Below are positions 4,542 through 62,258 of a stretch of DNA of 64,000 bases, in pieces. How positions within the stretch are numbered: position 1 is the first letter of the stretch; each line of letters opens with the position of its first letter. The notes below the pieces were generated by a model. That model had not been told where the DNA came from. It was given only the letters and a program-made list of their open reading frames with translations, and made no database searches. This stretch comes from Escherichia virus TH44. Location of the stretch: the sequence record MT446415.1. One strand, written 5' to 3'. Made by a program: the position numbers and the translations under genes.

Positions 4542-4745
4542 ATGAGAATCATTATGGATAAGGTTAAAGTACATTTTTTACACGAATCTGGTATGACATT
4601 TATTGAAATCGCCAAGGTACTAGGCGGGACTGCTAAAGAGATGGCAAAGGCCTGGGTTGATGTAGAACAAGCCAAAGCTAAATTTAAAGCGAAAGAAAAG
4701 ATTGTTTATCGTAAACGTTTGAATAACAAAAAGGTGAAGAAATGA
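4542..4745 (+). CDS. Hypothetical small protein (T4 24.3 position)
   Basis: 67 aa ORF downstream of candidate promoter; positional analogue between hoc and rnlB. Confidence 0.55.
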   Translation: MRIIMDKVKVHFLHESGMTFIEIAKVLGGTAKEMAKAWVDVEQAKAKFKAKEKIVYRKRLNNKKVKK

Positions 4746-5005
4746 CATTCGCAGAAGAACTACGCCAAATAGCCAAAGAGTCACAAGATAAAGTTGCAAA
4801 TGACTTTATTGCTATATTTCGCAAAGTGGCTCTTAACGCCGCCGAGAATGGCAAAGATGCTGTTAATATGGCAGTTTCTGAAAAAGAGTATGAAGAAGGA
4901 AACCGTGCAAAGATATCTGAATTTATGCGAGCAGAAAAATTTACATCATTTACCTGGAATTATGATTGGCAAGAAAACAAGCCAATGCTGTATGTAAAAT
5001 TCTGA
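4742..5005 (+). CDS. Hypothetical small protein (T4 24.2 position)
   Basis: 87 aa ORF overlapping previous stop (translational coupling). Confidence 0.55.
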   Translation: MTFAEELRQIAKESQDKVANDFIAIFRKVALNAAENGKDAVNMAVSEKEYEEGNRAKISEFMRAEKFTSFTWNYDWQENKPMLYVKF

Positions 5006-45509: not shown

Positions 45510-45583
45510 GGCCCTGTAGCTCAATTGGTTAGAGCATCCGGCTCATAACTGGCAGGTTTCCGGTTCAAGTCCGGATGGGGCCA
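45510..45583 (+). tRNA. tRNA with CAT anticodon (Met by sequence; likely lysidine-type Ile as in T4)
   Basis: Cloverleaf folded by hand: acceptor GGCCCTG/TGGGGCC, D arm GCTC/GAGC, anticodon loop CTCATAA, T arm TCCGG-TTCAAGT-CCGGA. Confidence 0.8.
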
Positions 45584-45585
45584 CC

Positions 45586-45662
45586 CGGGGTGTAGCTCAA
45601 TTGTATAGAGCAACGGTCTTCTAAACCGTAGGTTGTGGGTTAGAATCCCACCACCCCGACCA
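45586..45662 (+). tRNA. tRNA-Arg (anticodon TCT), CCA encoded
   Basis: Perfect acceptor CGGGGTG/CACCCCG, D arm GCTC/GAGC, anticodon stem ACGGT/ACCGT with loop CTTCTAA, T arm GTGGG/CCCAC, 3' ACCA. Confidence 0.85.
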
Positions 45663-59935: not shown

Positions 59936-60478
59936 ATGAAAAAAGTAATCGCCACCTTACTATTGACAGTTAGTATGTCTGCCCATAGCGTAGAGCCTAC
60001 TTTCAGTAATGAACAAATGGGGAACCTCCAATATGCTTATGCGTTTGGAGAACAGTTCCAGAAAAATGGTAAGTACAAAGAAAATCCGCACCAACATAAT
60101 GGTTTGGGATATATCATGGCTGGTTTAGCCTGGCAGGAAAGTTCTGCTGGGATTAATACTGGATTAAATAAAGATAAGCATCATGCATATGGTATATTCC
60201 AAAATTATCTTCCAACCGTGCGCGAACGCGTGAAACAGGTTGGGTGGACAATGACAGATAAAGAAATAATCAAGATGATAAGCAAGAGAGAGAACAGTGC
60301 ACGCTGGGCTTATATTGAGCTTTCATACTGGTTGAATATTCATAAGGGGGATATAAGGAAAACACTATCATCATATAACGCAGGGTGGAATGTGAAAGCT
60401 GGTAATACGTATGCTTCACAGGTCCTAGAAAAAGCTAACTACTTAAAATCACGAGGCCTATTAAAAACGGTGGATTAA
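59936..60478 (+). CDS. Secreted protein with lytic-transglycosylase-like motif
   Basis: 180 aa; signal peptide MKKVIATLLLTVSMSAHS; AWQESS...AYGIFQ resembles SLT ES...GLMQ motif. Confidence 0.6.
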   Translation: MKKVIATLLLTVSMSAHSVEPTFSNEQMGNLQYAYAFGEQFQKNGKYKENPHQHNGLGYIMAGLAWQESSAGINTGLNKDKHHAYGIFQNYLPTVRERVKQVGWTMTDKEIIKMISKRENSARWAYIELSYWLNIHKGDIRKTLSSYNAGWNVKAGNTYASQVLEKANYLKSRGLLKTVD

Positions 60479-60480
60479 AA

Positions 60481-60840
60481 ATGGTAAGAGTTATCACTTT
60501 AGCCATAGGGTTAGTATTCAGCACGGGAGGAATAGCTTCAGTACAGAGCGACGACAACAACAGCATCATAGAATATGCAACGAGGACGGCTAAAGATTAT
60601 TGCGCAGCAAGCAATGTGGATTGTGTAATCCAGTTCAGTGCCAAGCTCACCGCAGCCTATAAAGATGGCCAAAATGATGTTGAACATACGCTTTTGAAAA
60701 AGAATGTATTATCCAACAAATATGAAAAGAAACTATTTGAAATGGATTGCATTCTGTCAAGTGCAAAATATAAGGCGGCCTGCACCAGTATGGTTGACAG
60801 GTTAGTGGATTCATATAATAGAGGATTGAACTCTAAATGA
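60481..60840 (+). CDS. Secreted cysteine-containing small protein
   Basis: 119 aa; signal peptide MVRVITLAIGLVFSTGGIAS; four Cys. Confidence 0.6.
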   Translation: MVRVITLAIGLVFSTGGIASVQSDDNNSIIEYATRTAKDYCAASNVDCVIQFSAKLTAAYKDGQNDVEHTLLKKNVLSNKYEKKLFEMDCILSSAKYKAACTSMVDRLVDSYNRGLNSK

Positions 60841-61310
60841 TTACCCAGTATATTAAGGGCGATATCGTCGCCCTCTTTCTTCAAGGCAATATTATTGCAC
60901 ATGGTTGTAACTGCTTTCACACAATGGGTTCTGGCGTAGCTGGGCAGCTGGCGAAGGCTTATCCAAAAGTTTTAGAAATAGATAAAACCACTACTGAATA
61001 CGGTTCTCGTGATAAATTAGGCGATATGTCTATTGTTTTTAAACATAAGACTACAGGTTTTGGCATGTGCTATAACTTGTATACGCAATACGAACCAGGC
61101 CCTAATCTTGATTATGGTGCTTTAGTAAATTGTATGATAGAATTAAATCTACAAGCAGAAACCCTTTTGTTTAAACCGGTAATTTATATTCCTCGTATTG
61201 GTTGCGGTATTGCAGGCGGAGATTGGGATAAGGTTTCTAAATTAATCGACATGTTTACTCCTGACATTGATTTAATAGTGGTGGATTATGAGCCAAGCCC
61301 GAATTCTTAA
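60837..61310 (+). CDS. Macro-domain protein (candidate ADP-ribose binding/processing)
   Basis: 157 aa; KGDIVA...NIIAHGCNC...MGSGVAGQL and IGCGIAGGDW resemble macro-domain motifs GDIT...VNAAN...GGGV and G.G..G. Confidence 0.65.
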   Translation: MITQYIKGDIVALFLQGNIIAHGCNCFHTMGSGVAGQLAKAYPKVLEIDKTTTEYGSRDKLGDMSIVFKHKTTGFGMCYNLYTQYEPGPNLDYGALVNCMIELNLQAETLLFKPVIYIPRIGCGIAGGDWDKVSKLIDMFTPDIDLIVVDYEPSPNS

Positions 61311-61494
61311 AACGGCCAAATGTGAAAAATGTGAATGGCCAGTAATCGCAGCTTTGTGCAACGATGAAATGAATTGCGAATATGATTACTGGTGGTACTG
61401 TTCTAATAAAGGATGTTCTAATCATAAGGGTGAAGGTTTTCATTCTGGTTATTGCGAACATCCTAAATTTGTGCGATATGGGGAACCGAAATGA
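61288..61494 (+). CDS. Cys-rich small protein (zinc-ribbon-like)
   Basis: 68 aa with CxxC...CNDEMNC...CSNKGCSNH...C pattern. Confidence 0.5.
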   Translation: MSQARILKTAKCEKCEWPVIAALCNDEMNCEYDYWWYCSNKGCSNHKGEGFHSGYCEHPKFVRYGEPK

Positions 61495-61676
61495 GTTTAA
61501 GCATTAGTCAGAAAAGTAGATTATTTGAGCTTATCCATGAGCTTTTGGATGAGCATACGGAAGCAAACGCCTTTTATGATGAATACGGTCCAATAGATGC
61601 CGAACATCAGGAAGAATTTGCCAATCGATTTGATGCGAAAGAAAACGAATTAATAGCTTATGTGAATACGCTTTAA
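61491..61676 (+). CDS. Hypothetical small protein
   Basis: 61 aa, translationally coupled. Confidence 0.45.
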   Translation: MSLSISQKSRLFELIHELLDEHTEANAFYDEYGPIDAEHQEEFANRFDAKENELIAYVNTL

Positions 61677-61685
61677 GAAGGTGAT

Positions 61686-62258
61686 ATGGCGAGTTTAATT
61701 TATCATTACGCAGCAATGAATGCAGGCAAAACAGCTTCATTGCTGACTGCAGCTTATTCCTATAAAGAGCGTGGAATGAGTGTGCTTTTGCTAAAACCTG
61801 TTATTGATAATCGGGACTCGGAAGGCGAAATTAAATCACGCATCGGTATTAGCCAGGAAGCAAACCTGGTGACGGCCGACATGAACCTGTTTGAATTCTA
61901 TAAATGGGCCGAGTCTCAAAAGGATATCCATTGTGTCCTGGTCGATGAAGCTCAATTTTTGTTACCAGAGCAAATTGACCAGTTAGCTCAAGTGGTTGAT
62001 AATTACAATATCCCCGTTATGTGTTACGGGTTAAGAACAGATTTTCGGGGCCAATTATTTCCCGGTTCGGCTAGACTTCTGGCTATTTCGGATAAACTGG
62101 TTGAATTAAAGGGCGTCTGTCATTGCGGTCGGAAAGCAACCATGACCGCTCGAGTAATCGACGGTGCTGCTGTAAAGGACGGCGAGCAAGTATTGGTCGG
62201 TGGGAATGAATCGTACGTATCTTTATGCAGAAAACATTGGCTCGAATTGACAAGCTGA
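61686..62258 (+). CDS. tk: Thymidine kinase
   Basis: 190 aa; P-loop MNAGKTASLL, VDEAQF, C-terminal CHCGRKA...C..H zinc motif. Confidence 0.92.
   Translation: MASLIYHYAAMNAGKTASLLTAAYSYKERGMSVLLLKPVIDNRDSEGEIKSRIGISQEANLVTADMNLFEFYKWAESQKDIHCVLVDEAQFLLPEQIDQLAQVVDNYNIPVMCYGLRTDFRGQLFPGSARLLAISDKLVELKGVCHCGRKATMTARVIDGAAVKDGEQVLVGGNESYVSLCRKHWLELTS

Follow-up and report, generated by a model that had tools for sequence, protein, structure and literature searches.

Which function is served by the 157-amino-acid product encoded between vs and tk.3 in Escherichia virus TH44, and how far can the answer be drawn from what is known about related genes of T4-like phages? DarTG systems stop phages by ADP-ribosylating phage DNA, and the initial annotation of this locus had described a phage-encoded macro-domain protein that might act in counter-defence against DarT-type toxins or in connection with the phage's own ADP-ribosyltransferases. 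We examined the gene in a 64,000-nucleotide stretch of the viral sequence (record MT446415.1), which is called the window throughout. The gene is already known: it is tk.4, also named adfM, and its product is an anti-DarTG2 factor that consists of a macrodomain alone. What is modestly new is confined to one point: the T4-type AdfM is, judged from its residue pattern, a protein with a glutamine-type active site resembling that of SCO6735 and not a lysine-type active site resembling that of DarG.

The tk.4 locus and its early-gene neighborhood

The 2.4-kb segment around tk.4 shares 98.6% identity with Escherichia phage P479 and 97.8% with Shigella phage SP18 (Straboviridae, Tevenvirinae, Gaprivervirus), and by sequence the window is that of a Gaprivervirus-like relative of T4. 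On the plus strand of the window the genes follow each other in the order regB - vs.1 - vs - tk.4 - tk.3 - tk.2 - tk (Table 1), and the same order from regB to tk is annotated as a run of early genes in both SP18 and T4; regB itself was recognized by the Pfam model REGB_T4 (E=4e-72).

Table 1. Positions of genes, translation signals and active-site motifs in the tk.4 region of the window
Feature	Position	Strand	Basis or comment
vs.1, 180 aa, SLT-like	59936-60478	+	PHROG 600 E=3e-67; Pfam SLT E=0.009, below cutoff
vs (valyl-tRNA synthetase modifier), upstream neighbor in the same operon	60481-60840	+	PHROG 1256 E=2e-32; same order in SP18 and T4
Shine-Dalgarno-like GAGGA	60821-60825	+	11 nt 5' of the tk.4 ATG, read from the sequence
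tk.4/adfM coding sequence, 157-aa stand-alone macrodomain	60837-61310, including stop	+	ATG start, ORF translation
H22-G-C-N25-C26 motif	60900-60914	+	N25 corresponds to DarG N22, PhiKZ AdfM N23 and SCO6735 N27; H22 to SCO6735 H24
Loop 1, M30-G-S-G-V-A35, first glycine-rich ADP-ribose phosphate-binding loop	60924-60941	+	counterpart of the TARG1 and DarG 'MGxG' loop in the alignments
N80-L-Y-T-Q84 strand end	61074-61088	+	TARG1 profile alignment and MAFFT
Loop 2, P119-R-I-G-C-G-I-A-G-G-D-W130, second glycine-rich (diphosphate/distal ribose) loop	61191-61226	+	alignments
tk.3, 68-aa Cys-rich phage zinc-binding protein	61288-61494	+	Pfam PF23895 Phage_zn_bind E=1.4e-29
tk.2, 61-aa DUF7438 protein	61491-61676	+	small early protein near anti-defence gene
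tk, thymidine kinase, synteny anchor	61686-62258	+	Pfam TK E=4e-58

The open reading frame delimited in the initial annotation was recovered unchanged, and all four motifs quoted there are present in its translation, namely KGDIVALF (residues 7-14), IAHGCNC (20-26), GSGVAGQL (31-38) and IGCGIAGGDW (121-130). Its ATG overlaps the stop codon of vs in an ATGA tetranucleotide (60837-60840), an arrangement suggesting that translation of tk.4 may be coupled to that of vs, and the GAGGATTGA...ATGATT stretch at this junction is kept at the nucleotide level in T4 and SP18. In alignments the N-terminus ('MI..YIKGD') matches the beginning of the homologous proteins, so the start codon is well assigned. 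The 3' end of tk.4 shares 23 nt with the start of tk.3, and because the junctions overlap on both sides, tk.4 is a single element of a compactly arranged operon. The possibility that tk.4 has a promoter or terminator of its own was considered and rejected, as a promoter consensus scan of the tk.4 region returned 11 promoter-like sites compared to 11.0 +/- 3.1 in shuffled sequence, and no significant enrichment of terminator-like sites was seen. Located 20 nt inside the tk.4 coding sequence (60856-60874, plus strand) is a GC-rich hairpin (GGGCGA-TATCG-TCGCCC) with a T-rich run after it; in T4 the stem of the hairpin is conserved and the sole difference falls in the loop. Given the overlap with the conserved KGDIVAL codons, protein constraint alone may explain the conservation of this hairpin.

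Several further observations concern the neighboring genes and the remainder of the window. In SP18 and several relatives an extra 207-nt ORF, SP18_gp111, lies between tk.3 and tk.2 (positions 4598-4804 of the SP18 locus L001) and is absent from the window, and therefore the megablast match was split into two pieces (2,610 nt in SP18 versus 2,401 nt in the window); its presence or absence is a small indel polymorphism of the early region (junction 61494/61491). The whole 64-kb window contains only two tRNA genes, tRNA-Met (CAT) and tRNA-Arg (TCT), which are arranged back to back at 45510-45662 on the plus strand, and an Rfam scan of the window detected nothing besides these two. In T4, the equivalent region contains eight clustered tRNA genes. 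The product of vs.1 combines an N-terminal signal-peptide-like segment with its weak match to the SLT lytic transglycosylase domain and appears to be an exported muramidase-like early protein. In T4, vs was the most depleted gene in minimal medium, as reported in the HIDEN-SEQ preprint (bioRxiv 10.1101/2025.11.20.689424). Downstream, tk.3 comes after tk.4 in T4 and SP18 as well; for comparison with this pairing, T4 AdfN has been reported to require a further phage factor. The tk.2 product gave a sub-threshold match of 16.9 bits (cutoff 23.3) to the Pfam model Unstab_antitox ('putative addiction module component').

Macrodomain class and active-site residues

The designation of the product as a macro-domain protein in the initial annotation was borne out by profile matches to Pfam Macro (PF01661; 33.5 bits versus a gathering score of 22, E=4.3e-8, model positions 2-117 of 118) and to PHROG 335 (E=1e-70), a similarity far greater than chance would produce. 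The AlphaFold2 model of the window protein, for which a 53-sequence alignment without the T4 sequence served as input, reached a mean pLDDT of 94.7 and a pTM of 0.89 and displays the three-layer alpha/beta/alpha macro fold. Both glycine-rich ADP-ribose loops, M30-G-S-G-V-A35 and G122-C-G-I-A-G-G128, are present and conserved in the family, being retained in close as well as in distant homologs. Since sequence and profile searches of the PDB both put the same group of structures on top, the product is assigned to the macrodomain class termed ALC1-like, which includes TARG1, DarG and SCO6735; the MacroD, macroH2A, PARG and viral classes are all further from the product in sequence and in structure.

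To define the active-site positions, the window protein was aligned by MAFFT with T4 Tk.4, PhiKZ gp104, BT1257, SCO6735, TARG1 and the DarG proteins of Thermus aquaticus and Mycobacterium tuberculosis, with the sequences of T4 Tk.4 and PhiKZ gp104 taken from their records and those of BT1257, SCO6735, TARG1 and both DarG proteins from PDB alignments. Conservation was assessed in a 121-sequence alignment of close hits and in a 140-row alignment comprising the window protein and representatives from an exhaustive profile search. The asparagine of the HGCNC motif, N25, occurs in 119 of the 119 ungapped close hits and in all 140 representative rows; the roles of its counterparts N22/N23 and N27 have been described (PMC13309987, PMC9411070). 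Q84 occupies the site of the catalytic lysine of TARG1 (K84), DarG (K80) and PhiKZ AdfM (K78) and coincides with the essential Gln85 of SCO6735; T4 Tk.4 and BT1257 likewise have glutamine there. This residue is invariant in both sets (121/121 close hits and 140/140 representatives). In the second loop, A126 stands where TARG1 has its catalytic Asp125.

Across the 140 diverse representatives H22, N25, G33, A35, N80, Y82, Q84, G122 and G124 are invariant or nearly so, with strict invariance of N25, A35, D49, Y82, G122 and G124; within loop 1, G33 and A35 are invariant and M30 and G31 nearly so. The clade has invariant residues of its own in C26, D49 and Y82, and the loop after Q84 varies from 9 to 17 residues across the family in the 140-row alignment. 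Because glutamine replaces the lysine, Asn25 is kept and SCO6735 is glutamine-dependent, SCO6735-type chemistry is the most likely one for the T4-type AdfM, and by analogy these proteins probably use an SCO6735-type rather than a DarG-type mechanism.

Orthology with T4 tk.4, proposed mechanism and alternatives

The window protein is 58% identical to T4 Tk.4, with 153 of 157 residues aligned without gaps (E=2e-70), and the window gene can be regarded as the positional ortholog of T4 tk.4. The two share the position between vs and tk.3/tk and the invariant residues including N25 and Q84, but they differ in 42% of their residues and in the second loop, which reads GCGIAGGDW in the window and GAGIGKGNW in T4. 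As early as 2006, tk.4 orthologs were described as matching A1pp/macro (PMC1524935), and many GenBank records already label the gene 'macro domain-containing protein' or 'phosphatase'; in SP18 the macro gene carries the name tk.4 'phosphatase', and the T4 entry for tk.4 notes that it 'contains A1pp phosphatase motif'.

T4 lacking both adfA and adfN is still resistant to DarTG2, and a further factor was predicted (PMC11825919). According to the HIDEN-SEQ transposon-sequencing preprint of November 2025, no T4 gene other than tk.4 gave a significant hit on a DarTG2-expressing host, its clean deletion sensitizes T4 to DarTG2, and the gene was named adfM, for anti-DarT factor Macrodomain (bioRxiv 10.1101/2025.11.20.689424). 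The same source describes T4 Tk.4 as structurally similar to M. tuberculosis DarG and puts forward the enzymatic removal of ADP-ribose from DNA by T4 AdfM as a proposal (bioRxiv 10.1101/2025.11.20.689424). The counter-defense role against DarT-type toxins suggested in the initial annotation therefore agrees with the need for the T4 ortholog against DarTG2 in both the screen and the clean deletion, yet it is not new, since the phenotype of T4 tk.4 was already contained in that preprint. For this gene the anti-DarTG2 phenotype is known from T4 only.

We consider it likely that the window protein is an AdfM ortholog which, as an ALC1-like macrodomain and Gln-type hydrolase, undoes the ADP-ribosylation of DNA by DarT2 and serves as an orphan antitoxin. 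The protein would be made from the early operon regB-vs.1-vs-tk.4-tk.3-tk.2-tk in a cell in which a DarT2-type toxin of the host would ADP-ribosylate thymidines in single-stranded phage DNA and thereby block replication. It is predicted to accommodate the ADP-ribose moiety between both glycine-rich loops and to hydrolyze the bond between thymine N3 and ribose C1'', so that normal DNA would be restored, and it would do so with neither a DarT-binding C-terminal domain nor a toxin partner. Since the catalytic lysine is replaced by the invariant Q84 and Asn25 is kept, catalysis would probably be lysine-independent and involve water with assistance of the glutamine, as proposed for Streptomyces SCO6735. 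Fold, class, orthology, synteny and residue pattern come from the present analysis, and the anti-DarTG2 phenotype comes from the T4 literature; from these we infer the same phenotype for the window ortholog, action by hydrolysis and the detailed chemistry. Against this explanation stand the divergence from T4 Tk.4, the absence of the catalytic lysine required in DarG, TARG1 and PhiKZ AdfM, the incomplete analogy to SCO6735, the inhibition of DarT by catalytically dead SCO6735 and the RNA-repair neighbors of some distant homologs.

The distribution of the family bears on the breadth of its targets. Homologs were detected by tblastn in 2,766 of 50,697 phage records, most of them from myoviruses of Escherichia, Klebsiella, Salmonella, Pseudomonas, Vibrio, Acinetobacter and Aeromonas, and the exhaustive profile search yielded 18,580 cluster representatives at E<=1e-3, 9,359 at E<=1e-10 and 1,171 at E<=1e-30, each representing a cluster at 50% identity. 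Among the distant homologs, one on a metagenomic phage contig (L006, 1010-3957) lies near genes for a T4 Rnl1-like ligase, an AAA_33 kinase and a PD-(D/E)XK nuclease, another is found near HAD_PNKP and Dam methylase genes, a third on a further metagenomic phage contig (L007, 5630-6190) has a Tad2-like anti-Thoeris gene two genes away, and one orphan copy is located in a Pelagimonas chromosome. The two metagenomic contigs suggest that in other phages the family is located in islands devoted to anti-defense or RNA repair. The presence of a conserved toxin or partner gene beside the distant homologs was examined at five loci and rejected, as the neighbors varied and included no DarT.

Such contexts could mean that the target is broader or different, for instance uracil-linked ADP-ribose on RNA or small ADP-ribose immune signals and toxins (Thoeris-type signals, ADPr-1''P), with DarT2 being only one of several defenses countered. 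TARG1, DarG and SCO6735 also remove uracil-linked ADP-ribose from RNA, SCO6735 efficiently so (PMC13036486), one survey made the case for small-molecule ADP-ribose derivatives as the targets of phage macro domains, and the family, which is very large, occurs widely among myoviruses, beyond what one defense system might explain. The proximity of the Tad2-like gene fits such a broader role, and the location of distant homologs near RNA-repair genes hints at other substrates. However, the variable contexts keep broader substrate hypotheses alive while favoring none of them, and a wider target would add to the best explanation rather than exclude it. We regard this alternative as unlikely.

It is quite improbable that protection against DarT2 is achieved without catalysis, either by stoichiometric binding and blocking of the toxin or by shielding of ADP-ribosylated sites, as is thought for AdfA and AdfB. 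Protection without hydrolysis is conceivable because catalytically dead SCO6735 (Q85A) still inhibits DarT in vitro by direct interaction, and does so more strongly than dead DarG or TARG1 (PMC9411070); the canonical catalytic lysine is missing from the window protein, and the evidence for T4 tk.4 in the preprint consists of the transposon screen and the clean deletion, which involved no catalytic mutants. However, the ADP-ribose-binding and catalytic signature is invariant or nearly so in the 140 representatives, a degree of conservation to be expected of an enzyme but not of a toxin mimic in co-evolution with DarT proteins, which are variable. In addition, the protein does not contain a DarG-like DarT-binding C-terminal domain, its match being confined to positions 3-149 of the 338 in the DarG model.

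The labels 'phosphatase' and 'A1pp' attached to tk.4 would imply a Poa1p-like ADP-ribose-1''-phosphate phosphatase that, during infection, removes a side product of the chemistry of RNA repair or tRNA splicing (KptA/Tpt1), a function that we find highly doubtful. It is founded on domain naming, not on an assay, and on similarity to Poa1p, which was found in sequence and in structure, with the central region of Poa1p unaligned in the alignments obtained. The only condition found so far under which T4 tk.4 matters is the presence of DarTG2. Moreover, many macrodomains have weak Appr-1''-pase activity in vitro that carries no physiological meaning. To our knowledge, repair by T4 Pnk and Rnl1 leaves no 2'-phosphate, and therefore neither Appr>p nor Appr-1''-p would be expected in T4. 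Lastly, T4-like phages encode ADP-ribosyltransferases and tk.4 lies in an early operon, but it is scarcely credible that its product regulates the phage's own ADP-ribosylation by erasing Alt, ModA or ModB marks on host proteins, since Alt and the Mod enzymes modify arginine and the ALC1-like macrodomains known to us act on Glu/Asp esters and on thymine or uracil N-glycosidic links, not on Arg-ADPr. T4 tk.4 is also dispensable, with depletion reported only on the DarTG2 host in the accessible part of the HIDEN-SEQ preprint, and the link to Alt/ModA/ModB drawn in the initial annotation found no support in this analysis or in the literature consulted.

Comparison with known macrodomains and anti-DarT factors

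Within the ALC1-like class the catalytic dyad K84/D125 of human TARG1 (OARD1) corresponds to Q84/A126 in the window protein. DarG, represented by the macrodomain structures from M. tuberculosis (5M3I), T. aquaticus (5M31/5M3E) and T. africanus (7OMU), provided the best NCBIfam and PADLOC model. However, the DarG equivalog NF048014 (NCBIfam) scored 32.5 bits versus a cutoff of 250 over model positions 3-149 of 338, and membership in the DarG family was rejected on account of this score far under the cutoff, the absence of the C-terminal DarT-binding domain, the replacement of K80 by Q84 and the absence of a darT neighbor both in the window, where vs and tk.3 flank the gene, and at the five homolog loci examined. 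By analogy, the window protein would work as an orphan antitoxin in the manner of DarG's macro half.

The active site has its parallel in SCO6735 of Streptomyces coelicolor and BT1257 of Bacteroides thetaiotaomicron. SCO6735 rescues Escherichia coli from DarT, and its removal of thymidine-linked ADP-ribose from DNA is faster than that achieved by DarG or TARG1 (PMC9411070). Its Q85A and Q85E variants are inactive, and an activated water was proposed to take the place of the lysine nucleophile (PMC9411070). The window residues Q84, H22 and N25 correspond to Q85, H24 and N27 of SCO6735; however, the identity is only about 29%, and SCO6735 and BT1257 are cellular and not phage proteins. Lys34 and Lys89, the DNA-binding residues of SCO6735, are absent from the window and T4 proteins, in which C26, D49 and Y82 are the family-specific invariant residues. 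Both phage proteins also do not have the 'mobile loop' insertion of 5-6 residues present in SCO6735 and BT1257 and described as a typical trait of the Gln-type subclass (a 6-residue gap relative to BT1257), and because the loop after Q84 is short for this reason, the analogy to SCO6735 is incomplete.

Among phage proteins, gp104 of PhiKZ, the chimallivirus AdfM, removes thymine-linked ADP-ribose from oligonucleotides in vitro and is needed against DarTG2 (PMC13309987). Like the window protein it is a stand-alone phage macrodomain countering DarTG2, and the same name was given to it independently. In contrast to the window protein, PhiKZ AdfM is of the Lys type (N23/K78) and is related to M. 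tuberculosis DarG (phmmer E=9e-25), while its similarity to the window protein is limited to two short BLASTP patches (E=1e-3); its expression is late, and the protein enters the phage nucleus by import (Cell Rep 2026, PMC13309987). Equivalence of the two proteins was rejected on the grounds of this separate Lys-type lineage and patchy similarity. The sequences suggest independent origins of the two phage AdfM lineages, and since PhiKZ AdfM belongs to a different lineage, recruitment of anti-DarT2 macrodomains by phages seems to have taken place at least twice.

The T4-type clade carries the signature HGCNC...D...NxYTQ...GxGxAGGxW and comprises at least 1,171 clusters at 50% identity (E<=1e-30). 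As a tentative extension, which we hold to be possible but somewhat less than an even prospect, the recruitment on at least two occasions may have involved different chemistries, with the T4-type clade, unlike DarG and the PhiKZ-type AdfM, representing a lysine-free, Gln-dependent nucleic-acid de-ADP-ribosylase that is perhaps faster and broader, like SCO6735, acting on T-ADPr in DNA and on U-ADPr in RNA or other conjugates and thereby neutralizing more than one ADP-ribosylating defense. The substitution of glutamine for lysine is itself a testable mechanistic prediction, and it calls for caution, as the lysine-based chemistry of DarG should not be transferred to the T4-type proteins by homology alone. 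In a wider context, the AdfM orthology accounts for a further conserved early gene, labeled 'hypothetical', of a therapeutic-type T4-like phage and predicts growth of the phage on Enterobacteria carrying DarTG2.

Other anti-DarT factors are more distant. AdfB of ICP1 was rejected as a relative, as it does not belong to the macrodomains and is believed to bind DarT directly. AdfN was likewise rejected as the product of the tk.4 locus, since it is encoded by T4 gene 30.3, which is located elsewhere. Like the proposed activity of the window protein, AdfN is a phage orphan antitoxin-like glycohydrolase of T-even phages that erases DNA ADP-ribosylation made by DarT; unlike the window protein, it has the NADAR fold, acts on guanine-linked ADP-ribose made by DarT1 and gives no protection against DarTG2. 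T-even phages are equipped with layered erasers and inhibitors, in which AdfA and the guanine-specific NADAR protein AdfN are joined by the macrodomain AdfM, which would be thymine-specific.
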